Positions 49,424-64,000 of a stretch of 64,000 nucleotides of DNA are shown one piece after another. Source of the stretch: an uncultured Azospirillum sp. (GTDB taxonomy: Bacteria; Pseudomonadota; Alphaproteobacteria; Azospirillales; Azospirillaceae); contig CBFGPE010000004.1 in NCBI GenBank assembly GCA_965650625.1, forward strand, positions 23,115-87,114, given 5' to 3'. The notes beneath the pieces are model-generated. The model saw only the letters and a list, made by a program, of their open reading frames with translations, made no database searches and had not been told where the DNA came from. The translations under genes were made by a program, and so were the position numbers. The stretch's first letter is position 1. Every line of letters begins with the position of its first letter.

Positions 49424-52400
49424 ATGACCACCATTCTCCCAGACCTGTCAGACGCTCCGGCCGGTGCCGTGCCCGCCTGTTCTTGCCTGCTGTGCAGTGC
49501 CGCCTGGAGTGCCGCCCCCATCGCCGCAAGTCCGGACCCGCAAGGCGCGCTGCCGCAGGGCGCCGCCTCGTCCACCGTCCAGGCCTTGCTGGCGATGGGG
49601 ACGCCGCGCTGGGGCAGCGGCGCGGTCGGCAGCGGGGCGACGGTCACCTACAGCTTCATGGAGCAGGCGCCGTCCTATGCCACCACCGCGGACGGGAGCG
49701 GCTTCGCGACGCTGTCCAGCGCCCAGCGCGACGCGGTGCGGCAGGCCTTCGCCGCCTGGAGTTCGGTCGCCAACATCTTCTTCGTCGAGACCTCCGACAG
49801 CGCCAACAGCGGGCAGGGCGGGTCGATCCGCATCGGCACCAACCGGCAAAGCTCCAGCGCCGCCTACGCCTATTATCCGACAGGCTCGCTCTATGACGGC
49901 GGCGGCGACATCTATCTCGCCAACAACGCCTCGACCAACACCAGCCCGACGCCGGGAAGCTACGGCTATCTGACCATCCTGCACGAGATCGGGCACGCCA
50001 TCGGGCTGAAGCATCCCGGCAACTACAACGCCACCGGCGGCGGGGGCGAGCCGCCCTACCTGTCCTCGACCGAGGACAATTACCGCTACACGCTCATGTC
50101 CTACAACCGGCACCCCAGCCTGGGCCTGAACGGGCTGGCGACGGGGCCGGCGCTGTACGACATCGCGGCGGCCCAGTACCTGTACGGCGCCAACACCGAC
50201 ACCCGCATCGGCGACGACCGCTATGCCTTCGCCAGCAACACCGTGGCTGTCAGCCAAGCCATCTGGGATGCCGGCGGCACCGATAGCATCGACGCCAGCG
50301 GGCAGGCGTCCGCCGTCACCATCGACCTGACGCCCGGTGCCTTCAGCTCCATCGGTCCCAACGGATCGGGCGGGCTGGCGGTGGGCAATGTGGCGATCGC
50401 CGCCGGCGTCACCATCGAGAACGCCATTGGCGGTGCCGGCAACGACATCCTGATCGGCAATTCCGCCAACAACCTGCTGATCGGCGGCGCCGGTGACGAC
50501 ACGCTGACCGGCGACGCGGGCGACGACACGCTGCAGGGCAACGGCGGCATCGACACCGCGGTCTACAACGGCAGCCGCTCCTCCTACACCGTTACCGTCA
50601 CGTCCGACGGCGCCACCATCTCCGGCGGCGGCGAGGGCACCGACACGCTGACCGACGTCGAATTCGCCCTGTTCGCCGACACCCGGATCAGCCTGACGCC
50701 CCCGGCGGTCACCGCCAAGGCCGGCCGGGTTTCCATCGGCTCCTCGATCACCATCGCCAGTCTGGTGACGGCGACCGATCCGGCCGGCGGCCTCGTCACC
50801 CAATATGAGCTGGTCGACAACACCAGCGGCGCCGGCTCCATCATGGTCGGCGGGGTGGCCCAGGCCACCGGCGCCGTGGTCTCGCTGAGTGCCGCCGCCT
50901 TCGCCGGCGTCACCTTCGCCGCCTCATCCCTGACCAGCCTCGACGAACTGTCGGTGCGCGCCTACAACGGCGTGGCCTGGAGCCGCTGGGTCGGCTTTAT
51001 CGTCTCCTCCCGCCCGGCCAACCGGCCGCCGTCCGTCCAGGGCGACAAGACCCTGACCGCCCTGGAAGCCGGGCCGGCCATCGCTCTCGGCATCGACCGG
51101 CCGAGCGACCCGGACGAAGGCGACAGCATGGCGGTGACGCTGACCCGGCTGCCGACCGCCGGCACGCTGCGGCTGGCCAACGGCACCGCCGTCACCGCCG
51201 GGATGACGCTCGGCACCGCCGATCTGGGCGGCCTCACCTATCAGGCCCCATCCGGGACCCCGTCGTCGCCGGGCTCCTTCGCCTACACCGTCACCGACAG
51301 TCAGGGCGCGGTCAGCGGCCAGACCGTGACCTTGCGGGTGACCCCGCTGGCCGAGACGATGGCCGGCTTCGACCCGCTGGCCTATCTCGCCTCCAATCCC
51401 GATCTCGCCGCCGCCTTCGGCAGCGACACCACGGCGGCCCGCGAGCATTACCTGCGCTTCGGCCGGGCGGAGGGCAGGGCGGTCGCAGCCTTCGATCCGC
51501 TCTCCTATCTGGCGGCCAATCCGGATCTGGTGGCCGCCTTCGGCTACGATCCTGCGGCGGCGAGCCGGCATTATCTGACCTTCGGCCGGCGGGAGGGGCG
51601 CTCGACCGGCAGCTTCGATCCGCTGGCCTATCTGGCGGCCAATCCCGACCTGTCCGCCGCCTTCGGCACCGACACCGTCGCCGCCACCCGCCATTACCTG
51701 ACCCTCGGGCAGCGGGAGGGGCGCAGCATCCGCTTCGACGCCTTCGGCTATCTGGTGTCGAACCAGGATCTGTCCGCCGCCTTTGGTCTGGATCCGACAG
51801 CGGCGACCCGCCACTACCTGACCATGGGCCGGCAGGAAGGGCGCAGCATCACCTTCGACAGCCTGGGCTATCTCGCCGCAAACCCCGATCTGGCCGCAAA
51901 CTTCGGCATCGACACCGCCAAGGCGGCCCGGCACTACCTATCCTACGGCCGGTCCGAAGGGCGCAGCAGCAGCTTCGACGCTCTCTCCTACCTAGCGGCG
52001 AACCGCGATCTGGCGGCCGCCTTCGGCAACGATTCCACACGGGCGGAGGAGCATTACATCCGCTTCGGCCGTCTGGAGAACCGCAGCACCAGCTTCAGCA
52101 CCCACGACTATCTGCTGGCCAACCCGGACCTGCTCAGCGTCTTCTCGGGCAACGAGCAGCAGGTGAAGCTCTATGTCGTGCTCTACGGCAACACACCGCG
52201 GCGCGACGATGCCGGTTTCGATGCCCTGAGCTATCTGGCTGCCAATCCGGATCTGGCAGCGCGCTTCGGCACCGACACCGCGGCGGCCACCACCTATTAC
52301 CAGTCCACCGGCCAGACGGAGGGGCGGCCGACCCGGTTCAACGCGCTCGCCTACCTGATGGCCAACCCCGACCTCAGTGCCGCCTTCGGCAGCGACCAGC

Positions 52401-52531
52401 AGAAGGCGCTGATCCACTTCATCCAGTATGGCCGCAACGAATCCCGCCCCAACCCGATCGGCTATGTCCGCCCGTCCGCGGCCGGGCTCGCCATGGCGAA
52501 TGATGGGATGCTGGCGGCCGGTGTGGGGTGA
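49424..52531 (+). CDS. Serralysin-like M10 zinc metalloprotease with RTX repeats, Ig/cadherin-like domain and nine C-terminal ~40-aa repeats
   Basis: HEIGHAIGLKHP zinc motif, Met-turn TLMSY, IWDAGGTDSID, GGAGND/GGAGDD/GDAGDD nonamers, and DPDEGD. No signal peptide seen. Confidence 0.9.
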   Translation: MTTILPDLSDAPAGAVPACSCLLCSAAWSAAPIAASPDPQGALPQGAASSTVQALLAMGTPRWGSGAVGSGATVTYSFMEQAPSYATTADGSGFATLSSAQRDAVRQAFAAWSSVANIFFVETSDSANSGQGGSIRIGTNRQSSSAAYAYYPTGSLYDGGGDIYLANNASTNTSPTPGSYGYLTILHEIGHAIGLKHPGNYNATGGGGEPPYLSSTEDNYRYTLMSYNRHPSLGLNGLATGPALYDIAAAQYLYGANTDTRIGDDRYAFASNTVAVSQAIWDAGGTDSIDASGQASAVTIDLTPGAFSSIGPNGSGGLAVGNVAIAAGVTIENAIGGAGNDILIGNSANNLLIGGAGDDTLTGDAGDDTLQGNGGIDTAVYNGSRSSYTVTVTSDGATISGGGEGTDTLTDVEFALFADTRISLTPPAVTAKAGRVSIGSSITIASLVTATDPAGGLVTQYELVDNTSGAGSIMVGGVAQATGAVVSLSAAAFAGVTFAASSLTSLDELSVRAYNGVAWSRWVGFIVSSRPANRPPSVQGDKTLTALEAGPAIALGIDRPSDPDEGDSMAVTLTRLPTAGTLRLANGTAVTAGMTLGTADLGGLTYQAPSGTPSSPGSFAYTVTDSQGAVSGQTVTLRVTPLAETMAGFDPLAYLASNPDLAAAFGSDTTAAREHYLRFGRAEGRAVAAFDPLSYLAANPDLVAAFGYDPAAASRHYLTFGRREGRSTGSFDPLAYLAANPDLSAAFGTDTVAATRHYLTLGQREGRSIRFDAFGYLVSNQDLSAAFGLDPTAATRHYLTMGRQEGRSITFDSLGYLAANPDLAANFGIDTAKAARHYLSYGRSEGRSSSFDALSYLAANRDLAAAFGNDSTRAEEHYIRFGRLENRSTSFSTHDYLLANPDLLSVFSGNEQQVKLYVVLYGNTPRRDDAGFDALSYLAANPDLAARFGTDTAAATTYYQSTGQTEGRPTRFNALAYLMANPDLSAAFGSDQQKALIHFIQYGRNESRPNPIGYVRPSAAGLAMANDGMLAAGVG
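51364..52450 (+). repeat. Nine tandem 40-41-aa coding repeats, consensus FDxLxYLAANPDLxAAFGxDxxxAxxHYxxxGxxEGR
   Basis: Counted in the translation; about 120-123-bp periodicity. Confidence 0.9.
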
Positions 52532-52717
52532 TCCCGAAGTCTCACGCCTCCCGGCCGATCAGCCCCACGCCTGCGCGATCCGATGCATCGCATCAATCGC
52601 GCAACCACCGGGCGGACGGCCGGTGTCACGGGCGCGGTCTTATCGAGACCCGTCAAGGAAGGAACCGATTGTGAATTGTCCGCATCGGCCTGCGGATCGC
52701 CTGTGAAGGAAGCGCGA

Positions 52718-53449
52718 ATGTGGAGCAAGGGGGCATGGAAGCGGGCGGTGCGTGCGATGCCGGGAGCCGCCCATCTGATCCCCCTTTACCGCTTCGCCAA
52801 GGGGACGGACGCGCGCTACGCCAACCTGTGGCGGCGAGCGGTGCCCGGCCTGTTCCAGCCGTTCGCGACGACGCAGATGGACCGCTATCCCACCCTGTTC
52901 CGGTTCGCCCTGGCCACTCTGGGGGATGATCCTTCCACACGCCTGCTTTCCTTCGGCTGCTCGACAGGGGAGGAGGTGTTCAGCCTCCGCCGCTATTTCT
53001 CCCAAGCCGTCATCCGGGGAATCGACATCAACCCCCGCAACATCGCGCGCTGTCGGGCCAGTCTGTCGCGTCTGGCAGACGACCGGTTGTCCTTTACCGT
53101 CGCCGCCTCTGCCGCCGGGGAAGAGGCGGGCAGCTATGATGCGGTTTTCGCGATGGCTGTTTTCCGGCATGGGGAGTTGGGCGACTTTCCCCCGCTATGC
53201 AGCCATCTGCTCCGTTTCGACGCCTTCGAACAGGCGCTGACAGAGTTGGCGATCTGCCTGAAGCCCGGTGGCCTGCTGTTCTTGCGCCATGCCAACCACC
53301 GCTTCACGGATACAAGGCTGGCCGACAGTTTCGACCTGCTGCTGGAGGCGCCAAAAAATTCCACGACCCCGATCTATGGCAGGGATGAAAGGCTGCTGGC
53401 GCCACAACCCGTTCTCGAAGGCGTGGCATTCCGCAAGCGGGTGTCCTGA
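52718..53449 (+). CDS. SAM methyltransferase with CheR-like GCSTGEE motif
   Basis: RLLSFGCSTGEE, GIDIN, and LKPGG. Confidence 0.8.
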   Translation: MWSKGAWKRAVRAMPGAAHLIPLYRFAKGTDARYANLWRRAVPGLFQPFATTQMDRYPTLFRFALATLGDDPSTRLLSFGCSTGEEVFSLRRYFSQAVIRGIDINPRNIARCRASLSRLADDRLSFTVAASAAGEEAGSYDAVFAMAVFRHGELGDFPPLCSHLLRFDAFEQALTELAICLKPGGLLFLRHANHRFTDTRLADSFDLLLEAPKNSTTPIYGRDERLLAPQPVLEGVAFRKRVS

Positions 53450-53458
53450 AGCGACGGG

Positions 53459-54103
53459 TCAGTCGCGTGCCCGGTAATGGGCGAGCAGGCGGGGGCACAG
53501 CTTTTCCAGCCGGGCCTCCACCTCCGCGTCGCGGGGCTTGTCGCGAAAGCGTTCGGACACCTCGGTGCCCCGGACATTGCCGAACACGAACTCGAAATGC
53601 TCCATCAGGCCGGGGGTCAGCCGCCACAGCGCCTCCAGCATCTCGTTGTGGCGGCGGCGGTAGTTGTAGAAGTCCTCCTCCACCGGCCAGCCCAGCCCCC
53701 GCATTGTCTCCAGCACCGCCGGATCGCGCACGACGAAATCCTCGTACCGGATCACGGCGTCGAAGCGCTCCCGCTCGGCGAAGATCTGGTCGAGGATGAG
53801 GAACTTCTCGTCGATCAGCCCCGAATAGTTCCGGTAGTTCTTGGTCCGCAGGCTGATGTAGTTGTCGCGGGGGTCGCGCAGCAGCAGGACGATCCGGTGG
53901 GGCCGGAACCGTTCCATATGGACGGGCAGCGGGTAGGCGGTGGTCACCACCACCTTGGCCACCGTGTCCACCGAGGTGTCTAGGCGCGGGGCAGCGAAAT
54001 TATTGGGAATATCGACCAGCGCCAGGCAGTCGGGGCGCTGCGCCAGGAACAACGTGAAGGCGGTCGCCCCGCTGGACTGCATGCCGTAGACAAGAATCCT
54101 CAT
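53459..54103 (-). CDS. Sulfotransferase-like protein
   Basis: YGMQSSGAT loop, LRDPRD..IS, and IRYEDF. Confidence 0.7.
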   Translation of the reverse strand: MRILVYGMQSSGATAFTLFLAQRPDCLALVDIPNNFAAPRLDTSVDTVAKVVVTTAYPLPVHMERFRPHRIVLLLRDPRDNYISLRTKNYRNYSGLIDEKFLILDQIFAERERFDAVIRYEDFVVRDPAVLETMRGLGWPVEEDFYNYRRRHNEMLEALWRLTPGLMEHFEFVFGNVRGTEVSERFRDKPRDAEVEARLEKLCPRLLAHYRARD

Positions 54104-54119: not shown

Positions 54120-54911
54120 TCAGGCCGCGGCCACGGTCTTCGCCGCGGGTGGCACCAGCCATTCCCGCTCGATCTCGGCGCTGACGAAGACGTAGCGGCG
54201 GGTGTGCGGGGTGGGGTGGCGGATACCGACCCCGTGGATCGCGTCGATCCCCTGCGGGAAGATCACCATCTGGTTGGCGCGGTAGGGGACGACGGCGGCC
54301 ACCTCCACCGACTCGGCGGGCAGGGCATAGTTCGCGATGTCGGCGACCGGGCCGTTCTTCCAGCGGAACAGCTCCAGATCACCGCCCACCGCGTCGTCGT
54401 CGGGGTGGCGCAGGTAGTACAGGCAGGTGAACAGCCGGTTCGGCATGTCGAGGTGCGGTCCCCGCGAGGTGGAGGGGCCGGCGGTGACTGGCGTGTTGAT
54501 CTCCATCCTGGCCTCCTGAAGGATGCGCGCGCGGTCGAAGCCATCGCGCATCAGCAGCCCCATCGGATGGCCCAGCAGGTCGCCGTCCAGCGCCTCCTTC
54601 ATCGCTGCCGGCCAATGGTCGCGGAACAGCGCCACCACCTCGGCGAAGAAGGCGGGCGAGGTGTGGTAGGCGACGAAATCCTTCCACACCGGCGGCAGCT
54701 CGGTGTGGTTCATGATCTGCCAAGCCGAGAGCTGGTAGCGCCGGTTGCTGCCCGGCGGCTTCGAGCCGGCCCAGCCGATGACCGGGAAGGGCGGATAGCC
54801 CTCGTTCAAGGCGCGGTAGGTATCCCCGTCCAGCACGTCCGGCACGACCAGATGAGGAAAGGGATCGAGGCGGATGTCGAACGGGGTCAGGCCGGAAAGC
54901 AGGGACCGCAT
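54120..54911 (-). CDS. 2OG-Fe(II) oxygenase-like protein
   Basis: PFPHLVVPD, HxD (PHLD), LYY, GGDLEL, NQMVIF, HGV, and RRYV. Confidence 0.8.
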   Translation of the reverse strand: MRSLLSGLTPFDIRLDPFPHLVVPDVLDGDTYRALNEGYPPFPVIGWAGSKPPGSNRRYQLSAWQIMNHTELPPVWKDFVAYHTSPAFFAEVVALFRDHWPAAMKEALDGDLLGHPMGLLMRDGFDRARILQEARMEINTPVTAGPSTSRGPHLDMPNRLFTCLYYLRHPDDDAVGGDLELFRWKNGPVADIANYALPAESVEVAAVVPYRANQMVIFPQGIDAIHGVGIRHPTPHTRRYVFVSAEIEREWLVPPAAKTVAAA

Positions 54912-55192
54912 GCTTGATGTCCTGGTCGGTGGGCGGTTCGGTGGGGGCGATTCGGTAGAGGCGGCCCGGTGGGCGCCACGCTACCATCCAGCGGAAGGCC
55001 GGGGAATACAAGTCACATTGATAGAGATTGTCCCCGCTCCGTCAACCTGCGGAACGTGCAAGGGTACATTGCCGGCGATTGAAGAAATCGGCTAAGATTT
55101 CCCGGATGAGGATCTCCGGTTCCGGCTGCCGCGGCGCGTTTCGACCGGGATCGGCCGATGGATACCAACGCACCGATGAGCGCACCGCACCG

Positions 55193-55810
55193 ATGAACGC
55201 CTTCCAAGCGCCGGCACCCTACCGCATCGTCCGCAACTTCCTGGGCGACGAGCTGATCGAGCGGCTGCTGGCCCATGCCCTGGCCAGCCGGGAGGACTTC
55301 GCTCCGACGCGGGTTGGCGGCAAAACGGGGCGCGAGGATCGGGAAATCCGCATCTCCCTGGTGCTGCGCAAGCTCGGACCGCTGAAAGACGAGCTCAAGG
55401 CCCGGTTTCGGGCAATGGCCGACTGGTCGGTCGGGGAATTCCGCCTGTCGCCCTTCGATCTCGACTCGATGGAGATCGAGCTGGTCGCCCACGGCGACGG
55501 CGCCTTCTACGCGCGGCACATCGACACCGCGACGGGGGATCCCGAGCTCGCCAGCGACCGCGTCCTCACCGGCGTTCTCTACTTCCACGCGCTGCCCAGG
55601 CGTTTCAGCGGCGGCGAACTGCGCATGCATTCGATCCTGCCACCGGAGCACGGCGGCCGGCATGAGGACATCGAGATGGAGCGGGACATGCTGCTGCTAT
55701 TCCCGTCCTGGGCGCCGCACGAGGTCCGGCCGGTCTCCTGCCCCTCCGGCGACTTCGCCGACCACCGCTTCGCCATCAATTGCTGGTACCGGAAGCGGCG
55801 CGCCGCATGA
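55193..55810 (+). CDS. 2OG-Fe(II) oxygenase (prolyl-hydroxylase-like)
   Basis: YARHID, VLYF, GGELR, FPSWAPHEV, and RFAINCW. Confidence 0.85.
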   Translation: MNAFQAPAPYRIVRNFLGDELIERLLAHALASREDFAPTRVGGKTGREDREIRISLVLRKLGPLKDELKARFRAMADWSVGEFRLSPFDLDSMEIELVAHGDGAFYARHIDTATGDPELASDRVLTGVLYFHALPRRFSGGELRMHSILPPEHGGRHEDIEMERDMLLLFPSWAPHEVRPVSCPSGDFADHRFAINCWYRKRRAA

Positions 55811-55990: not shown

Positions 55991-57928
55991 ATGCGGCTGA
56001 TCTGCGGCTTCCTGCGTCTCGACGGGTGTCCGGCCGAGGGCGAACGGCTCGACGCCATGGCGGCCGCCATGGTGGGGCCAGGCCTGTCACCGTCCGTCGC
56101 CCGCCGTATCGACGGCCCGGTGGCCCTGGCGATGCTCGACTTCGCCAGTCCCCGTTCCTGGCCGGCGGCCGGGGGGATGCCGGCTGGAGAGAGCGGCCTG
56201 CTGCTGGCGGCCGATATCCGCCTCGATGAACCGGACCGGCTGGCCGGGGCGTTGGGCGGAGCGCTGGGCAACGCAGACGGCTCCGCCGGCACGGGACGGG
56301 ACGACGGACTGCTGCTATCCGCGCTGGAGCGCTGGGGACAGGGGGGCGTGGGCCGCGTGCTCGGCGACTTCGCCTTTGCGGCGTGGGATCCGCGCTCGCG
56401 CAGCCTGCTGTGCGCCCGCGACGCCATGGGGGTGCGCCCCTTCTTCTTCCTGCACCGTCCGGGTGAGGCCTTCGCCTTCGCCTCGCTGCCGCGCGGGCTG
56501 CATGCCGGCGGCTTCGCTGCGCGGGAACTCGACGAGGAGTACCTGCTCGGCACGCTGTTGCTTACGCCCCTCGGGCCGGAGCGCTCGTTCTTCCGTGGGA
56601 TGGAGCGTCTGGCGCCGGGCGGCCTGCTGCGGGTTTCGGCCGGAGGGCTCGAACGGAGTCTCCACTGGCAACCCGACGAGGCCACGGCGGGGCGCCGAGC
56701 CTGCCGGCCGGAAGAGGCGGCCGAAGAGATGGCGGCGCTGCTGGCGGAAGCGGTGCGCTGCCGCCTGCCCGCGGCGGGGCCGGTGGCGACGCATCTCAGC
56801 GGCGGCCTCGACTCCTCGACCGTTACCGTCCTGGCGGCGCGGATGCTGCGCGGCCAGGGGCGTCCGCTGTGCGCCTATTCGTTCCTGCCGCGACGAGGCG
56901 ACGGCTATTCGGACAACGACGAGCGGCCGTATATCGATGCCGTCCTCCGCCAGGAGCCGGACATCGACTGGACTCCCGTCCACATCACCGACCCGGCGGC
57001 CTTCGTCCTGCCGCGCCTGGATCCGGATCAGCCCTACTCCTGCGACCCCGCCACGCCCGAGGTACAGGTCTGTGCCGACGCCGCGGCGCGCGGCGCCGGC
57101 ACCTTGCTAACAGGCTGGGGCGGCGACGAGGGGGCGACCTTCCATGGCGGCGGAGCCTTGGCCGAAGCGTTCCTGGCCGGACGCTGGCGGACCCTGGCCC
57201 GGGAGGTTCGGGCTCTGGAGAAACTGGGGCGGTCGCCGATGTCGGTGGTGCGCGGCGACATCCTGCCCTACCTGATTCCCGATCGGGCGCAACGGCTGAT
57301 CAGGCGCCTGCTGGGCCGACCGCCGCAACGGACCGGCTACGAGAGGGTCGCCGCGCTGCTCCGCCCCGGCGCGGTTGCCGGGGTTTCATCGTCGAGCTTC
57401 GTCTTCAGGCCCGACGCCGTGGCGAACCGCTTGGCGGGGCTGACGGAGCCGGGCGTCGCGGCCAACGTCGAGAAGCTGGCGACGATGGGGGCCCGGTATG
57501 GTCTCGCCGTCGCCTTCCCGATGCTGGACCGGCGGCTGGTCGCGTTCGTGCTGTCGTTGCCCAGCGCCCTGTTCCTGCGCGACGGGTGGAGGAGGCGCCT
57601 CTTCCGCGACGCCATGGCCGGCGTGCTGCCGTCCGAAATCCGCTGGCGCCCGGACAAGCTCGCCGCGATTCCGGAACAGCCGGACCTCGTGCTCGGGCAG
57701 CGCGACGCCCTGTTGGCGCAGTTGCCCCCGTTGCGCCGGCATCCGCGCATTGCCGCCCTCTTCGACCTCGACGTCATCGAGGAGCGGCTGCGTGCCCTGC
57801 CGTCCGCCGACGAGACGCCGAAGACCTTGTCACTCCGGGAGGCGCAAGAGGTCAGGCGGAGCATCTCGGTACTTTGGCGGGTTCTCTGCTTCGCCATCTA
57901 CGTGCAGCATCATCACGGTATGGACTGA
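55991..57928 (+). CDS. Asparagine-synthase-like lasso peptide cyclase (C protein)
   Basis: GDFAFAAWD, ARDAMGVRP, HLSGGLDS, TGWGGDE, and PMLDRRLV..RR.FRDAM. Lacks the Cys at residue 2 needed for glutaminase activity. Adjacent to B1/B2. Confidence 0.8.
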   Translation: MRLICGFLRLDGCPAEGERLDAMAAAMVGPGLSPSVARRIDGPVALAMLDFASPRSWPAAGGMPAGESGLLLAADIRLDEPDRLAGALGGALGNADGSAGTGRDDGLLLSALERWGQGGVGRVLGDFAFAAWDPRSRSLLCARDAMGVRPFFFLHRPGEAFAFASLPRGLHAGGFAARELDEEYLLGTLLLTPLGPERSFFRGMERLAPGGLLRVSAGGLERSLHWQPDEATAGRRACRPEEAAEEMAALLAEAVRCRLPAAGPVATHLSGGLDSSTVTVLAARMLRGQGRPLCAYSFLPRRGDGYSDNDERPYIDAVLRQEPDIDWTPVHITDPAAFVLPRLDPDQPYSCDPATPEVQVCADAAARGAGTLLTGWGGDEGATFHGGGALAEAFLAGRWRTLAREVRALEKLGRSPMSVVRGDILPYLIPDRAQRLIRRLLGRPPQRTGYERVAALLRPGAVAGVSSSSFVFRPDAVANRLAGLTEPGVAANVEKLATMGARYGLAVAFPMLDRRLVAFVLSLPSALFLRDGWRRRLFRDAMAGVLPSEIRWRPDKLAAIPEQPDLVLGQRDALLAQLPPLRRHPRIAALFDLDVIEERLRALPSADETPKTLSLREAQEVRRSISVLWRVLCFAIYVQHHHGMD

Positions 57929-58462
57929 CTGACCGGCCGCCGCTGTATTGGCTGCTGTACTGGGTGCCGTCTCGTGGGTGAAGCGGGCGATTTCGGTGAA
58001 GCCGCGGCTGACCGGGACGCCGACCACGCCCATGTCGCCGACGGTCAGCCACGCGTGCGCTTCCATCCTCTGGCCGGCCCTCTGGCCGTCCCGGTGGCCG
58101 GTGCCATCCGTGGCCAGGCGCATGCCGAAATGGAGCGTCGAGGCGATGCAGCGCCGATGGAGCATCAGCTTGGCAACGATTGCCTGTGGCAGACAGTGCG
58201 CCTGGCACGGCAGATGGCGGGCGGCACGACCGACCGCCATTCCGACCCTGCGGATGGCGGTCTGCCGTCGTTCGTCAAGGGGAAAGGCGGCGTCGATGCC
58301 GCTGGATGGAGGGCCGCCGGACAGGACGCCGAACCGGGCGGCGATCCATCGGAACGGCAGCAGGCCCAGCACCGCGAGTGCCAGCACCAGCCACGCCGCC
58401 GCCTCCAGCGTCAGCCACCGGTCCCCTGCGGGAAGGTTCAGGAATTTACGCAGCCGTTCCAT
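57830..58462 (-). CDS. Lasso peptide B2 leader peptidase (transglutaminase-like)
   Basis: CLPQA (Cys), LHFG, AHAW (His), and VVG. Confidence 0.88.
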   Translation of the reverse strand: MERLRKFLNLPAGDRWLTLEAAAWLVLALAVLGLLPFRWIAARFGVLSGGPPSSGIDAAFPLDERRQTAIRRVGMAVGRAARHLPCQAHCLPQAIVAKLMLHRRCIASTLHFGMRLATDGTGHRDGQRAGQRMEAHAWLTVGDMGVVGVPVSRGFTEIARFTHETAPSTAANTAAAGQSVHTVMMLHVDGEAENPPKYRDAPPDLLRLPE

Positions 58463-58754
58463 CGCCCGGCTTCAGCAGCCCGCGCTCATGCAAGGTCCCC
58501 AGGAAGCGCTCAGCCTCGTCCCGTGCCGTGGCGGGGGCGACCTCGTACTCGGCGACCAGTTGCGCGACCAGCCGCTCCAGCGTCGTGGGGGTTTCGAGCA
58601 ATTCCCAGATCCGGGTGCCGACGGGGTTCAGGTTGAAGTAGGTGCCGCTCTCGACGCTCATCATCAACAGCTCGTCGTTGACGGCGGCGGTCAGCAGACC
58701 GTCGGCACGCTGGAAGGCTTCATTCCGGGACGGTGCCGCGTCATTCATGGACAT
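58446..58754 (-). CDS. PqqD-family RiPP recognition element (lasso B1)
   Basis: ELLMMS..SGTYFNLNPVGTRIWELL...EYEV....ARDE...FL..L...GLL. Confidence 0.9.
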   Translation of the reverse strand: MSMNDAAPSRNEAFQRADGLLTAAVNDELLMMSVESGTYFNLNPVGTRIWELLETPTTLERLVAQLVAEYEVAPATARDEAERFLGTLHERGLLKPGDGTAA

Positions 58755-58833
58755 TCCCTTTCCAAGCAATTCCCTGCTGTCTCGGGCAACTATTCAGATG
58801 ACAATGTGCGCCCACCTGTCAAACGATAGCGGA

Positions 58834-59685
58834 TCACAAATAGCCGTATCGCTTCATCATCGGGCGATGAGCGGCTGCGATGGCTTCCTGTTGGACCGGC
58901 GTGAGCGTCTCGGCCCACGCCCCCGCGCGGCCGGAGCGGAAGAACGGCGCGATCGATTTCAGTGACCGCTCGGAAAACCCTTTCTGCTGCTCCTGCCGCT
59001 GCAGCGTGGTGAAGTCCGCAAAGCGAGCGGCGCGTTCCACCTGTGCCCGTGACGCTGCCAGCCCCAAAAAAGCGATGGCCGCGCCGAAGCTGCCGACAGG
59101 ATCTGCCCGCAGATCCTCGTACCGTAGTACGTGTACCGGCACATCGTACTGCTCGGTCCAACTGGCCACATGACCACTCCAGTCCAGCGTCACCTGGGGA
59201 AGCTGGCTTTCCAGATGGTTGAGGTTCGCGGCCAAAGTGTGGTGGTTGGAGTTCAGCCATCCGATGGCGTGGTCGATGCCGACATGCGCGTGGAAGGAAA
59301 AAGACACGGCTACATCGCGCGGGTCACGTACTATGTATAGCGCCGCGCGCGCCACGCCACGGCCCAAAACCGGCTCACCGTCGGGGTTTACCCGGTACGC
59401 ATCGTGTACCTTGAGGTACACCGGCTCCGTTGTCTCCGCCACGATGCCCTCGATGATCCGAGGGCGCAGCCGGTCCGCCTCGTCCTTCGTCAGCAGATCC
59501 GTGTCGATCAAAGTGATGTCGTCGGCGTCGGCCCGATTGACCGGATAACGGTTGCAGAGGTTGATCCGGTTGATATCGACCGGCTCCTCCCCCATGGATA
59601 GCAGGTTGGCGAAAAGCAAACGCAGCCACGTGTTGCCCGATTTCGGATAGGACGCCAGCCAAACGATCCTGCCCTCCGGCGCCAT
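58834..59685 (-). CDS. Sulfotransferase (Sulfotransfer_1)
   Basis: WLASYPKSGNTWLR, KVHD, YIVRDPRDVAVS, RYEDL, and FFRSGRAG.W. Confidence 0.92.
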   Translation of the reverse strand: MAPEGRIVWLASYPKSGNTWLRLLFANLLSMGEEPVDINRINLCNRYPVNRADADDITLIDTDLLTKDEADRLRPRIIEGIVAETTEPVYLKVHDAYRVNPDGEPVLGRGVARAALYIVRDPRDVAVSFSFHAHVGIDHAIGWLNSNHHTLAANLNHLESQLPQVTLDWSGHVASWTEQYDVPVHVLRYEDLRADPVGSFGAAIAFLGLAASRAQVERAARFADFTTLQRQEQQKGFSERSLKSIAPFFRSGRAGAWAETLTPVQQEAIAAAHRPMMKRYGYL

Positions 59686-60596
59686 CAGGCACTCTCCCGG
59701 AGGTGCGCAAGAACCATTTGGACGGTTTCATCGAGACGGCCGAAATCAATGGCCTGGGAAAGTCGGAAGACACGGACATGGCCGAGCAGGGCGGCGATCT
59801 GGCCGAAAAGCTGGGTGTCACGTCCCATATGGGACGCCAAGGACGAGCGATACACCTCCCGGCGCAGCAGGGGTGCTGCCTCCACCAGCTTGAGGGGCAG
59901 GAAGGCCGGGACCTGCGGTGGCCGCACTTGCCGGAGCAGAATGACGGTCTTCAGCGGAAAGCTGGGCTGCGCACCCGCGCCACAGGGATCGACATGGTAT
60001 TTCCGGATGCCTTTCCTGACCGCCTCTCCCTGACGGTCGGCAAGCGACAGTCGTTCCACGGCTTCGGCCCACAATCGGTGCCAACGCCCGTCGGACAGCA
60101 CGGAGGGGCGGCCGTCCGGACCGAACCGGATGGCCGAGACGTCATCGCTGATGAACCCGCCTCCCGCCCGGCACAACGCTGCGGCAAAGGTTGATTTCCC
60201 CGCTCCGGTCGGGCCGCACAGCGCCACGCCGCAACCATCGAGGGAGACGGCCGCCGCATGCAGTACCAGGCTCCCGCGCTGATGCAGCGCGGCGCCGAGC
60301 CCAGTACCCAGAAGGAAAGGTGCGGCATCCGCCTCACGCCCCGGCGCTTCCAGAGCCGCAATGATCTCGCGCCCGGCGATGACCAGGCAACGGACCACGC
60401 CGGGTACATGAAAGAGAAACGAGGAACCAGCAACCTGCCAGTTCGGTCCGACGTAGCTTGCACCTTCCATCGTCGTCGGTACGGCACCGCGCCGGATCAC
60501 CACATCCGGTTCAGACCGGGACCGTTCGATCTCCTGATACCCTGCTAAAGCGAACTCCGAAGCGACCGACTGCCCACAGATCAGGTATTGGAACAA
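59685..60596 (-). CDS. HPr-kinase-like lasso peptide kinase (PadeK-type candidate)
   Basis: LVLHAAAV, GPTGAGKST, and ISDD. TTG start; TGATG overlap with the sulfotransferase. Confidence 0.82.
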   Translation of the reverse strand: MFQYLICGQSVASEFALAGYQEIERSRSEPDVVIRRGAVPTTMEGASYVGPNWQVAGSSFLFHVPGVVRCLVIAGREIIAALEAPGREADAAPFLLGTGLGAALHQRGSLVLHAAAVSLDGCGVALCGPTGAGKSTFAAALCRAGGGFISDDVSAIRFGPDGRPSVLSDGRWHRLWAEAVERLSLADRQGEAVRKGIRKYHVDPCGAGAQPSFPLKTVILLRQVRPPQVPAFLPLKLVEAAPLLRREVYRSSLASHMGRDTQLFGQIAALLGHVRVFRLSQAIDFGRLDETVQMVLAHLRESA

Positions 60597-60705
60597 TCAC
60601 CACTCCCAACGCCAGAACGGCATCCTGCCATAGTGTACATCCATCCTTCGCTTCTGGAGGGAGGAAGCTCCGATCACCGATCTGGGAGAGCTGATAAACC
60701 CTAGT

Positions 60706-60873
60706 TCATGACGCCGTAGTATAGGCGGTGGGATTGCTCCCTTCCGGAGTGCCGGCACCTTTCTGCAAGGTCAAGGTCTGAATGCTCTGGCTCTGGATTT
60801 CCGGCGTGACCCACACTTTCTTGGGCTGAGCGGGTTCAGCGTTCGCCGGATGGGGGAGGTCATGCGCAGGCAT
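60706..60873 (-). CDS. Candidate lasso peptide precursor (55 aa), not in the ORF track
   Basis: Manual translation: MPAHDLPHPANAEPAQPKKVWVTPEIQSQSIQTLTL-QKGAGTPEGSNPTAYTTAS*. It has a WxxPxI leader motif, Thr at -2, Glu at core position 8 and a C-terminal Ser, and lies directly upstream of the kinase. Confidence 0.75.
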   Translation of the reverse strand: MPAHDLPHPANAEPAQPKKVWVTPEIQSQSIQTLTLQKGAGTPEGSNPTAYTTAS

Positions 60874-60985
60874 GATGAAGCTTTCGGTCTGGTCGGCAGA
60901 GAGCGGGCCGCAGGTAGTCTGCGACCCCTATGAAACCTAGCAGGATACCGTCAGAGTGACAAGCATCGGTGGCAGCAGCCACGAC

Positions 60986-61537
60986 TCATGCGGGATATTG
61001 TGGTCCCGCCGTCAATTTGGCCTGCTTGGGATCCGGGTGCCACACCATGCTCCAGGCTGGTCCCTGCATTCCAACTTCGACGAAGCCCAGACGGCGGTAG
61101 AGGATCTGCGCCGGGTTCGTCATATCCACGGCGAGGCTGACCGTCTTGCCCTCGTTGGCGGCTTCGGCCTGCACCGCCCGGATCAGCGCCGTTCCCAGGC
61201 CGCGGCCCCGCCATTCCGGAACCAGCGACACGTCGACGACGCGCACGTCGCCGGCAGTACGGAGCAGGTAGAGCCGCCCGATGGGGACGTCGCCCTGCAC
61301 CAGGATGCCGAAATCGGCATCGGCGTAGGCGGCGGCGTAGTGGTGCGCCTGGAAGGCGAACTGCTGGGCCAGGAACGCCCGCTTGGCTTCCTCCGGCCAT
61401 CCGGTCGGATCGAGTTCGCCGATGCGGATCGAGACGAACAGCCGCTCCAGGAACGGCCGGTCGTCCGCGGTCTCGCCACGCAGGGCGAAGCCCTGCCCTG
61501 CGCCATGCAGGGCAAGGCTTCGGTATGCGGTCTGCAT
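60986..61537 (-). CDS. GNAT N-acetyltransferase
   Basis: QFAFQAHHY...PIGRLY...VVDVSLVPEWRGRGLGT...NPAQILYRRLGF. Confidence 0.88.
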   Translation of the reverse strand: MQTAYRSLALHGAGQGFALRGETADDRPFLERLFVSIRIGELDPTGWPEEAKRAFLAQQFAFQAHHYAAAYADADFGILVQGDVPIGRLYLLRTAGDVRVVDVSLVPEWRGRGLGTALIRAVQAEAANEGKTVSLAVDMTNPAQILYRRLGFVEVGMQGPAWSMVWHPDPKQAKLTAGPQYPA

Positions 61538-61550
61538 CGCCGGCACGCGA

Positions 61551-62147
61551 TCAATTCCGCACCGGGAAGACCCCGTCATTGTTGATGCAGAACAGCATCG
61601 TCAGATACGGCTGCCGGTTCTCATGCGCATCGACGCCGCCCGCGGTGTTGCCGCCGCCGACGGTGATGGAAGCCCCATGCATCATCGTGTCGGGCGACTG
61701 TCCGGTGTTCGCGATGTACGCCGCCACGTTGTTGTAGGTGGTGGCGGAAGTCGGCTGGACGACACGCGCCAGCCAGGACTGGTTGGCCACGGGCGTGGTC
61801 TGCGTGTTGGTCTGAATGCCGGTCGCTACCGGATTCTCCACCGTCATCGTGTGGTTGTGCGGCGGTAGCTGCTGGCCGCTGAGAACCACCGTCTTGCTGC
61901 CGACCGTCGTGGCCCCCCAGTGCCGCGGCGACAGGCCCGGCCCCTGGCCCTGGCACATGACGGTGAAGCCCTGCAGGTTGGGCAGCTTGAAGGTCTGGTT
62001 GGGGGTGCCGCCCCAGGTGTTGCCGATGATGGCGTAGAGCGCCGCATTCAGGGGCGCGGAGATTTCCTGCCCGTTGCAGATGTACCAGCCCTGCGGAACG
62101 TACCCGAAGGCGAATGCGCGAATTTCGCCGATGTAAGCGTCAGCCAT
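61551..62147 (-). CDS. Phage tail collar domain protein 3 (MdpB-like)
   Basis: YIGEIRAFAF...PQGWYICNGQ...LYAIIGNTWGG...FKLPNLQG...HENRQPYL..FCI...GVFP.RN. Confidence 0.88.
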   Translation of the reverse strand: MADAYIGEIRAFAFGYVPQGWYICNGQEISAPLNAALYAIIGNTWGGTPNQTFKLPNLQGFTVMCQGQGPGLSPRHWGATTVGSKTVVLSGQQLPPHNHTMTVENPVATGIQTNTQTTPVANQSWLARVVQPTSATTYNNVAAYIANTGQSPDTMMHGASITVGGGNTAGGVDAHENRQPYLTMLFCINNDGVFPVRN

Positions 62148-62162
62148 GGTTTTGCCTCCCTC

Positions 62163-62705
62163 TTACGCCCGGGTGGGGAAAGTGCCGTTCAGGGCGATGA
62201 TATAGGTCAGGACCGCGGTGGGCATGACGTTGGCATGCCCGACGCCCGCCCCCTCGGTCGAGATGGTGGAGGCCACCGGGTTGACCGCCGATCCGCCGGC
62301 GCTGCCCAGGCCGCTCTTCAGGTACATGGCCGTGGGGCTGGTGGTGTTGGCGAACATCACCGTGCTGCCGGGGTTCGGCGTGGTGGCCGGGAGGCCGGCG
62401 GTCCGCAGGAGGTGGTTGTGCGCCCCGGTGTGCGCGGCCTGCAGCGACACGGTCTCGCTGCCGCCGGACTGCCCCATGACGCGGTTGGTTAGGCCGGTTC
62501 CTTGGCCCTGCCCGATCGGGATGCGGCCGCGCAGGTCGGGGATGCCGAAGGTCTGGACGCCGTCGCCGCCGTAGGTGGTGCCGATCAGCGCGTACAGCGC
62601 CTGATAGGTGTTGATGGCAAGCAGCGAGCCGTCGCAGATGTGCCAGTCGGCTGGTGGGTAGCTGCCCGCGAACAGCCGGATCTCGCCAACGAAATAATCG
62701 GTCAT
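62163..62705 (-). CDS. Phage tail collar domain protein 2 (MdpB-like)
   Basis: FVGEIRLFAG...WHICDG.LL....ALYALIGTTYGGDG..TF.IPDLRGR...H.NVMP...YIIAL.G.FP. Confidence 0.9.
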   Translation of the reverse strand: MTDYFVGEIRLFAGSYPPADWHICDGSLLAINTYQALYALIGTTYGGDGVQTFGIPDLRGRIPIGQGQGTGLTNRVMGQSGGSETVSLQAAHTGAHNHLLRTAGLPATTPNPGSTVMFANTTSPTAMYLKSGLGSAGGSAVNPVASTISTEGAGVGHANVMPTAVLTYIIALNGTFPTRA

Positions 62706-62738
62706 GGATGCTCCCTTCTCCGAATCAATGGGCCGTCG

Positions 62739-63281
62739 TCAGTTCCGCGCCGGATAAAGGCCGACGATCGCGATGCAGAAATTCAGCACTAGGAAGGGTT
62801 GCATGTTGTTGTGCCCCGCGGCGGCAGGCGTGGTGGAGATCGTCGCCGGGTTGAGCGTGATGGGGGCCGTTCCGGGCGCGCCGTAGATGCTCGGCGCCGT
62901 CGTCACCTTCGCATTGGTGCCTGTCGAGGCGAAGAAGTTGCCGGACGGATTCGGTGCGACACCGGCGGCGGCGAGCCCGTTGACCGTGTGCTGGTGCGGC
63001 GGGATCTGGGTGCCGGTCAGCGCCACCGTCTCCACCCCCAGCGCCTTGCCGCGCATGTAGTCGCCCGAGGGATCGTTCAGGTTCAGGTGAGCCATCGCGC
63101 GCCCGCGCAGGTCGGGCAGATTGAACGTCGTCGTCCCGTTGCCGCCGTACGTCGTGCCGAGCAGGGAGAACAGCGCCTGGTTCCCCTGGATTTGCATGGT
63201 GGTGCCGTCGCACAGATGCCATCCGTCCGGCGCCCAATTCATCGGGAACACCCGGATTTCGCCCAAGAACCAATCACTCAT
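62739..63281 (-). CDS. Phage tail collar domain protein 1 (MdpB-like)
   Basis: FLGEIRVF...WHLCDG...NQALFSLLGTTYGGNGTTTFNLPDLRGR...HNNMQPFLVLNFCIAIVGLYP.RN. Confidence 0.9.
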   Translation of the reverse strand: MSDWFLGEIRVFPMNWAPDGWHLCDGTTMQIQGNQALFSLLGTTYGGNGTTTFNLPDLRGRAMAHLNLNDPSGDYMRGKALGVETVALTGTQIPPHQHTVNGLAAAGVAPNPSGNFFASTGTNAKVTTAPSIYGAPGTAPITLNPATISTTPAAAGHNNMQPFLVLNFCIAIVGLYPARN

Positions 63282-63669
63282 AGCGTTCCTCCTCGCAGCC
63301 TTGGAGCGTACCAGAAGCATGCAAATCAATGGCGACCGGCAACTTCGGATACATACTCCTGCCTATATCACGGGTTGATTTGGCCTTATCGCATCAAATT
63401 GTGACAAAGGCGCCCTCCACATGCAACGGGATGTCTGTTTGATTTCAATGCAGTAGCAATACGCGATATGGCATACGTAAGCGTGTTGCGGACCTTGAGA
63501 TAATCTACTGGAAGTACGTTCGCGGTCCCGACCTTGGTTCTGGTTCCATGCGACTCGGATGTATCACCGGAATGTTTTTCGCCTTTGCCGGTCTTCGTTT
63601 CCAAGCCCGTGACGGTTCGGGTATGGTCGCGCCCGCGAACCAGCCTGCCATCCCATGACGGGAACCGCC

Positions 63670-64000
63670 ATGCGAGCGATCCTTTTCGGCCTGCTCCGGC
63701 ACCTTCGCCCGTCCGGGGATGCGGTATCCCCGGCGGGGGAATTCGCCGCCTTCCTGCGCGACGTCGCCGCCTTCGCCGGCTGGCGGCTGGCCGGGATGGC
63801 GGTGCTGGCGGTGCTGGCCGCCGCGGCGGAGGGTATCGGCCTGCTGCTGCTGGTGCCGCTGCTCTCGATGGTCGGTGTCGGGGTCGGCGGCGTGGGAGGT
63901 AACCGGCCGGGGGAGAGCGGCCGGTCCTGGCTGGCCTTCCTTGGACTGGGGACCGGACTGGAAGGCGCGCTGGTCCTCTATGTGGTCCTGGTGGCGGCGG
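63670..64000 (+). CDS. ABC transporter permease/ATP-binding protein, N-terminal part (lasso D-type candidate), truncated by the window edge
   Basis: Manual translation MRAILFGLLRH...LAVLAAAAEGIGLLLLVPLLSMVG... is hydrophobic and open to the window end. Confidence 0.65.
   Translation, partial: MRAILFGLLRHLRPSGDAVSPAGEFAAFLRDVAAFAGWRLAGMAVLAVLAAAAEGIGLLLLVPLLSMVGVGVGGVGGNRPGESGRSWLAFLGLGTGLEGALVLYVVLVAA

Follow-up and report, generated by a model that had tools for sequence, protein, structure and literature searches.

We analysed a 64,000-nucleotide stretch of DNA from an uncultured Azospirillum sp. (contig CBFGPE010000004.1 of assembly GCA_965650625.1), referred to here as the window, in which three paralogous genes for phage tail-collar proteins and a gene for a GNAT acetyltransferase sit inside a gene cluster for a lasso peptide, a peptide made on ribosomes and then post-translationally modified (RiPP). 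Judged from sequence, this four-gene collar/GNAT cassette is probably coupled functionally to the lasso pathway. On balance we favour the explanation in which the collar triad and GNAT form an integral, recurrent accessory module of the kinase/sulfotransferase-type lasso cluster. Recurring across many bacterial families, the pairing suggests that a modified peptide and a binding knob of phage origin act in a partnership not yet described. Lasso peptides have been studied intensively, and to our knowledge no natural role has been assigned to the kinase-type ones; the collar triad with its GNAT is widespread, and we know of no function for it. A fibre-tip module in about half of alphaproteobacterial kinase-type lasso clusters is a candidate protein partner for these peptides. 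The lasso context is in turn the most tractable handle on the collar triad: the partner is small and its chemistry is defined, there are Azospirillum strains that can be cultured, and the gene set is compact. Cluster boundaries drawn in RiPP mining should keep collar/GNAT genes instead of discarding them as phage debris.

Adjacency of collar genes and lasso clusters across genomes

An even sample of 401 Alphaproteobacteria was searched with a GNAT profile, the kinase and the collar-domain family PF07484, and the 20 kb around each relevant match was annotated with hidden Markov models (HMMs) built from the window proteins; the annotation of open reading frames (ORFs) in the fetched loci rests on these HMMs made in the present analysis. 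Of the 21 kinase-type lasso clusters, 10 have collar genes no more than 10 kb away, compared with 0.125 expected by chance (Poisson p 2e-16). These ten clusters span eight families; eight have the triad and GNAT, and two have a single collar gene beside the precursor gene and no GNAT. Counted by genome, 15 carry the cassette, 20 a kinase homologue and 11 both, with a kinase homologue in 11 of the 15 cassette genomes and in 9 of the 386 others (odds ratio 115, Fisher p 2e-13). The first-pass annotation of the window had read the collar, GNAT and lasso genes as one system, and had named adjacency that is not enriched across genomes as the outcome that would speak against it. That comparison was run, and the adjacency is enriched. 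The genetic coupling in the one-system claim is thus supported by the enrichment and by the rearrangements described below, whereas its mechanism, for which the annotation gave a displayed ligand or modification of the collars by the RiPP enzymes as examples, stays a proposal.

Among 37 Azospirillum genomes, 11 have both the cassette and the kinase, none has the cassette alone, one has the kinase alone and 25 have neither (p 1e-8). The sole kinase-only genome is a fragmentary assembly with a partial kinase, and the cassette adjoins lasso genes in all 11 genomes that bear it. An example of the pairing is plasmid NZ_CP054615.1 of A. oryzae KACC 14407, and the same pairing occurs in two families outside the Alphaproteobacteria (loci L030 and L037). 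Lasso clusters without the kinase provide a small control, of six clusters from a 271-genome subset of the sample: none of the six is in a genome with any collar gene (p 0.04 against the 10 of 21 kinase-type clusters). One alphaproteobacterial genome (G009) holds at least five kinase-type lasso clusters (L014, L069, L074, L077 and L079). Among these, one has a full cassette and another a single collar gene.

A competing explanation is that the cassette and the lasso cluster are two independent modules that share mobile accessory 'surface and secretome' islands, with no functional tie between them. Both modules do exist alone, the region has a lower G+C content (0.62-0.67, versus 0.69-0.73 in the upstream DNA), as in islands, and examples are found on plasmids and megaplasmids. 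We nevertheless regard independence as improbable, given the excess of adjacent pairs over chance, the unbroken linkage in the Azospirillum cassettes and the ways in which the genes have been rearranged. At least six cassette/lasso gene orders occur in Azospirillum, and in several orders the cassette is nested between essential lasso genes, which lie on both sides of it in L016, L026, L094, L095 and L096; the order in L016, for instance, is B1 B2 / GNAT collars / C sulfotransferase kinase. In L019, DUF6916, three collars, GNAT, precursor and cyclase share a strand, and no gap between them exceeds 44 bp. The GNAT gene is directly upstream of the precursor gene in the window and in L007, L008, L019, L026 and L095. 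A tree of 40 kinases requires nine changes of the cassette label, of which branches with a Shimodaira-Hasegawa-like approximate likelihood ratio (SH-aLRT) of at least 95 force at least six. The widely varied gene order and orientation and the changes on the kinase tree together imply that the partnership has been made or lost repeatedly.

The peptide gene also keeps company with the cassette. A precursor-like ORF, recognized by its leader and C-terminal-Ser pattern, lies within 1.5 kb of the cassette at 11 of 16 loci in lasso context, at 2 of 11 loci with neither lasso genes nor a giant protein, and at 0 of 29 giant-protein loci, the last figure doubling as a false-positive control. The two 'neither' loci belong to one genus (L010-L012, together with L071, L072, G058:C21 and G230:C31). 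Here the cassette has its own PqqD protein and precursor, placed between DUF6916 and collar1. A second locus of the same genus carries the kinase, sulfotransferase, B1, C and another precursor, and B2 stands alone at a third. That a precursor and PqqD remain with the collars where the enzymes sit elsewhere also argues against independent modules, and is the strongest hint that the collars need the peptide rather than the enzymes.

A number of observations weigh against functional coupling. A simple size-and-hit classifier places 29 of 56 cassette loci beside a protein of at least 1500 aa, with no lasso genes, 16 beside a kinase-type lasso cluster and 11 beside neither, one of the 'giant' loci (L049) also having a very divergent kinase-like ORF. 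Eleven of the 21 kinase-type clusters are without collars. Related genomes do not count as independent samples, and an island can be transferred as a whole. Of the 60 branches in the GNAT tree 8 are well supported, a resolution too poor for counting how often the cassette arose. Neither a signal peptide nor an export signal is present in the collars, while the peptide has an exporter; no export signal was found in the GNAT either. Finally, an AlphaFold model of the collar2 monomer, based on a 24-sequence alignment, has a predicted local distance difference test score (pLDDT) of 61 and is poor beyond residue 65, with only the collar domain confident.

The first-pass annotation had held that collar triads with a GNAT recur next to large proteins, and the 29 giant-protein loci, all in Pseudomonadota, bear this out; examples include Ruegeria sp. 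TM1040 and Aminobacter aminovorans plasmids. We found no published description of this arrangement of triad, GNAT, DUF6916 and giant protein. Its triad is ordered as in the window, and its GNAT belongs to the family found there. In the window, by contrast, the lasso precursor and enzymes take the place of DUF6916 and the giant protein. No neighbour of the cassette reaches 1500 aa, the largest being a 1035-aa RTX protease 5 kb beyond the cluster. DUF6916 (PF21880) had no hit in the genome from which the window derives, although control genomes gave no hit either, and it is absent from L007 and L008. The C-termini of the giant partners share no motif resembling the peptide tail; they are type I secretion system (T1SS)-like, beta-barrel-like or of other kinds. 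Several giant-protein loci have an extra protein of 210-494 aa between collar3 and GNAT (L089 10721-11938, L090 10439-11923, L027 9344-9976), with no Pfam match.

Gene layout and the lasso pathway

The features of the region are given in Table 1. As read from the ORF list and the minus-strand sequence, nine genes from collar1 to B2 run head-to-tail on the minus strand. Successive genes from collar1 to the kinase are separated by 33, 15, 13, 112 and 109 bp, and a GGAGG-type ribosome-binding site precedes each of the three collar genes. The first-pass annotation had described this layout, and the gaps from collar1 to the precursor, exactly to the base, and Pfam and NCBIfam confirm the families it named, with the kinase scoring below the curated cut-offs. 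A promoter and terminator scan detected no terminator-like site between GNAT and precursor; the scan was uninformative overall, with 0 promoter-like sites and no more terminator-like sites than background. The cyclase gene is convergent with B2, and the exporter gene is divergent from collar1, beyond the collars. The exporter scores 270-333 bits against the exporters inside four collar-free or single-collar kinase-type lasso clusters (L068, L080, L082 and L016) and at most 105 bits against other ABC proteins of the sampled loci, and we therefore assign it as the lasso exporter. Since the collars stand between the other lasso genes and this orthologue of lasso D proteins, the cassette they form with the GNAT is enclosed by the lasso cluster, which spans from about 52.6 kb to past the window end with the collar/GNAT genes between precursor and exporter.

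Table 1. Genes of the collar/lasso cluster and its surroundings, in window coordinates.
Feature	Position	Strand	Description
collar1	62739..63281	-	180 aa, phage tail-fibre-tip-like subunit; PF07484 E 6e-28
collar2	62163..62705	-	180 aa; PF07484 E 2e-27
collar3	61551..62147	-	198 aa; PF07484 E 1e-20
Cassette GNAT acetyltransferase	60986..61537	-	183 aa; PF13508 and PF00583
Lasso precursor A	60706..60873	-	55 aa; read from sequence, aligned with related precursors
HprK-related lasso kinase	59685..60596	-	303 aa; Hpr_kinase_C and TIGR04352, both below cut-off
Sulfotransferase	58834..59685	-	283 aa; PF00685 (Sulfotransfer_1) E 1e-22
B1, PqqD-type leader-recognition protein	58446..58769	-	PF05402 E 2e-21; NF033536 72 bits (cut-off 80)
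B2 leader peptidase	57830..58462	-	NF033537 72 bits (cut-off 33), E 5e-20; PF13471
C, Asn-synthetase-like lasso cyclase	55991..57928	+	PF00733 E 3e-32; NF033535 274 bits (cut-off 525)
2OG-Fe(II) oxygenase, probable tailoring enzyme	55028..55810	+	PF13640 E 8e-16
Second 2OG-Fe(II) oxygenase-like protein	54120..54911	-	PF13640 E 4e-6
214-aa protein, family unassigned	53459..54103	-	Homologues in other lasso clusters
SAM methyltransferase	52583..53449	+	Cluster edge, start codon uncertain; Methyltransf_11, _12, _25
ABC exporter D, 5' part	63655..64000	+	Full 645 aa extends past window; ABC_membrane and ABC_tran
Serralysin/RTX protein	49424-52531		1035 aa; M10 protease, RTX repeats and Big_9 domain
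2OG, 2-oxoglutarate; SAM, S-adenosylmethionine.

As far as its genes tell, the lasso part of the window is an ordinary kinase-type cluster with one unusual detail. It contains everything by which a split-B lasso pathway is recognized, namely a precursor with a (Y/W)xxPx(L/I) leader, Thr at -2 and an acidic residue within core positions 7-9, the PqqD-type RRE protein B1, the transglutaminase-like protease B2, C and a dedicated exporter. The precursor has the leader KKVWVTPEI...TL and the predicted core QKGAGTPEGSNPTAYTTAS. Its register was set by alignment with three related precursors from the leader Trp onward, with Thr at -2. The predicted ring joins Gln1 to Glu8 (Glu8 in QKGAGTPE), and the precursor ends in ...YTTAS with a C-terminal Ser. 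The window core (60706-60762) starts with Gln, and the cores of the three relatives start with Ala or Gly. The precursors of at least 12 related clusters align through a [KR]xWxxPx[LIV] leader, Thr at -2 and a C-terminal Ser, the last of which is present in nearly all of about 30 related precursors, with one ending in Thr.

The kinase matches Hpr_kinase_C at 24.8 bits (1.8e-5; cut-off 33.3) and TIGR04352 at 35.9 bits (4e-9; cut-off 200). It falls within the tree of lasso-cluster kinases, and its orthologues in relatives carry PF27840 ScmC. The sulfotransferase gene follows the kinase gene in lasso clusters both with and without the cassette. HprK-like kinases have been described as phosphorylating the C-terminal Ser of the linear precursor, several times over in Proteobacteria (PMC8498205).

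Kinase-containing lasso clusters are known from Firmicutes, where paeninodin is made with the kinase PadeK, and from Sphingobium yanoikuyae, whose cluster yields polyphosphorylated lasso peptides (Zhu et al. 2016, reviewed in PMC8498205). The window shares with these clusters the split B1/B2, the Asn-synthetase-like cyclase, the ABC exporter, a putative HprK-like kinase and the Ser-ending precursor. It differs from them in the four-gene collar/GNAT cassette between precursor and exporter and in the predicted core that starts with Gln. Sulfotransferase and other tailoring genes have also been noted in kinase-type lasso clusters (PMC8498205). The same review of lasso tailoring makes no mention of collar or tail-fibre genes, and our full-text literature searches found no paper linking tail-collar or tail-fibre proteins with lasso peptides. 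A comparative-genomics table on Pontixanthobacter lists 'tail fiber protein' and lasso genes, without comment, among clusters that co-occur with halotolerance (PMC10040529).

Collar proteins, the GNAT and alternative roles

The three collars match PF07484 with 97, 96 and 74 bits, respectively (cut-off 24), and each matches tail or tail-fibre families of the phage database PHROGs over nearly its full length, collar1 hitting the tail-protein PHROG 9116. Collar2 matches the receptor-binding domain of T4 gp12 (1OCY) with E 5e-7, and a profile of 24 collars hits both T4 gp12 and the long tail fibre 8KEC at their tips. With 8KEC, the HxH segment (HQH) is aligned, and a second, weak stretch takes in the C-terminal 'H-x-N-x-x-P...F' strand. 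H96, H98, H157, N159 and P162 are invariant in the 24 collar sequences; collar1 has the motifs HQH and H-x-N-x-x-P, and collar2 and collar3 have HNH. The collars resemble the tip of the short tail fibre gp12 (1OCY, 5IV5) and 8KEC in their collar domain, HxH metal-site segment and conserved C-terminal strand, and each is about the size of the gp12 tip fragment. In contrast to these fibres, the window has three separate genes instead of one homotrimer-forming chain, and its collars are without fibre shaft or phage context and are linked to a GNAT and a RiPP pathway. A parallel is found in the virophage DSLV2, whose tripartite tail proteins are reported to be related to the T4 fibre tip, to act together and to be associated with lipopolysaccharide binding and the term PF07484 (PMC12724248). 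The DSLV2 proteins are a component of the viral particle, whereas the window collars are chromosomal and bacterial and are joined by a lasso cluster and a GNAT.

The 114 collars of 38 triads, placed on a tree, group by gene position. The position label changes 17 times on the tree, compared with 54 after shuffling, and none of 200 shuffles reached as low a count. The collar3 orthogroup is the best resolved of the three (6 changes versus 32 in shuffles). This ancient, ordered triplication fits the prediction of an obligate heterotrimer, and the position-specific orthology of the three collars lends support to the heterotrimeric fibre imagined by the first-pass annotation.

With PGAP labelling such genes 'tail fiber protein' and the matches to phage tail PHROGs, the collars might be taken for the decayed remnant of a prophage or tailocin. 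We give this reading practically no credence, and rejected it. Across many families the three genes keep their order, are intact and are orthologous by position, and the cassette, triad and GNAT together, is kept in 47 of 401 sampled Pseudomonadota. No PF07484 hit other than the three collars was found in the genome. The first-pass annotation had seen no other phage genes, and this is correct for the genes within about 10 kb, which encode transferases including a GT41 protein and a methyltransferase, oxygenases, the ABC exporter and the RTX protease. A PADLOC search for known anti-phage defence systems gave no match for the collars, GNAT, sulfotransferase or DUF6916, and for the kinase only P-loop noise.

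The cassette GNAT has an RGRGLG acetyl-CoA motif and belongs to a distinct family with 474 homologues, which lies beside collar genes in 56 of 63 sampled loci. In locus L039 (9992-11842), two collar domains and the GNAT are contained in a single 617-aa frame that no stop codon interrupts and in which the second collar lacks its usual start Met. This frame looks like a natural fusion, and it associates the GNAT with the collars instead of the peptide.

An acetyltransferase beside a lasso precursor has a precedent in AlbT, the GNAT needed to make the acetylated lasso peptide albusnodin (PMC8498205). Like AlbT, the window GNAT is encoded in a lasso cluster and adjoins the precursor gene, as it does in the five further loci named above, and the window core has a Lys at position 2. 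An ordinary tailoring GNAT of the AlbT type, with the collars as passengers, is nonetheless very unlikely. The window GNAT is of a different family, tied to collars in lasso and lasso-free contexts alike: its orthologues (E 1e-40 to 1e-60) are present in the 29 lasso-free loci, always with collars, and in L039 the GNAT is read in one frame with two collars. A collar without a GNAT is seen in two lasso clusters, and many related cores are without Lys. We rejected this role on the occurrence of the same GNAT family in lasso-free loci and on the cores without Lys.

Immunity proteins that sequester or acetylate often adjoin antimicrobial peptide genes. By analogy, the cassette could serve self-protection, with the knob sequestering the peptide inside the producer, or the GNAT inactivating it, until export. 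The lack of an export signal in both the collars and the GNAT would suit such a role, and acetylation has been proposed as a resistance mechanism for albusnodin (PMC8498205). We think self-protection quite unlikely, however, as the orthologous cassette stands beside giant proteins with no peptide gene at any of the 29 loci, half of the kinase-type clusters do without a cassette, and no Lys is conserved across the core peptides.

The collars, and DUF6916 where present, might instead be substrates, as well as the peptide, of the cluster kinase, sulfotransferase, oxygenases or the neighbouring GT41 protein. A pair of genes for a PF05118 hydroxylase and a Sulfotransfer_3 protein speaks for a version of this idea. 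The pair accompanies the cassette in lasso context (L015, L028), in giant-protein context (L006, L040-L042) and in neither (L046), and was never found in collar-free lasso clusters, from which it follows that the cassette has tailoring enzymes of its own, some with a cassette-linked substrate. L054 also has the pair, with its Asp/Arg hydroxylase-like PF05118 member, beside the cassette. The presence of a TPR-GT41 gene after the exporter in both this DNA and A. cavernae is a further point in favour. The kinase and PF00685 sulfotransferase, on the other hand, occur in 11 collar-free clusters, and the peptide therefore suffices as their substrate. The kinase's relatives target a Ser at the C-terminus (PMC8498205), a residue with which none of the three collars terminates, and no modification site is known on the collars. 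We consider collars as shared substrates rather unlikely.

Proposed mechanism and neighbouring genes

In the explanation that we favour, with the cassette as a module of the lasso cluster, the early steps would follow known lasso pathways by homology. B1 would bind the KKVWVTPEI leader of the 55-aa precursor, and the HprK-like kinase is expected, as in its relatives, to phosphorylate the C-terminal Ser of the linear precursor. The sulfotransferase and 2OG oxygenases would add further groups to the peptide. B2 would then cleave after Thr(-2)-Leu(-1), C would close the Gln1-Glu8 ring, and the divergent ABC protein would export the product. The three ordered collar paralogues may build a heterotrimeric knob of the gp12 type, centred on metal bound at the HxH sites, and the GNAT may acetylate this knob, for which the conserved Met-Ser/Thr/Ala-Asp N-termini are the most plausible sites. 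The knob's binding partner would be the lasso peptide in its mature, strongly anionic form, and the two would work together, with the knob as a device for carriage, targeting or docking. A giant surface protein may take the peptide's place as partner of this knob in other lineages.

That the knob binds the peptide is the specific step in this scheme that we consider less likely than not and put forward only tentatively. More doubtful still is a further reading in which both form one device, a phage-derived, metal-centred heterotrimeric receptor-binding knob with the phosphorylated, sulfated lasso peptide as its dedicated ligand or arm. The resulting complex of RiPP and protein would serve adhesion, targeting or antagonism, and the knob would elsewhere sit on a giant surface protein. 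If this were true, the peptide and the giant protein would be interchangeable partners of an ancient bacterial recognition module.

The large RTX protein noticed in the first-pass annotation is real, a serralysin-type protease. A part for it in the system is not supported, and we rejected it as a candidate component: the two closest relatives, A. cavernae and the metagenome relative L007, do not have the protease next to the cluster.

The genes at the cyclase side of the cluster recur in other lasso loci. The first 2OG-Fe(II) oxygenase gene is kept beside the cyclase in L005, L007, L025 and L088. The second co-occurs with the gene for the 214-aa protein in L005, L007, L016 and L094. The 214-aa protein has homologues in L007, L008 and L016 (E 1e-89 to 1e-131) and no Pfam match. 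It has a P-loop-like N-terminus, and four or more lasso clusters have it together with the second oxygenase (L007, L008, L016 and L094). Homologues of the methyltransferase at the cluster edge are present in L009, L016, L088 and L094. The 3' ends of the cyclase and B2 genes overlap by 99 bp (57830-57928). The same pair is 33 bp apart in A. cavernae, and one of the two window ORFs may therefore have a C-terminal extension.

At the other end, the contig runs 5.4 kb past the window and encodes the remainder of the transporter, a TPR-GT41 glycosyltransferase and a methyltransferase. The TPR-GT41 protein is OGT-like and the methyltransferase has a regulatory domain; both genes follow the exporter on the same strand (L004 4568-8457) and may belong to the cluster. 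The arrangement of exporter, TPR-GT41 and methyltransferase is also found in A. cavernae.

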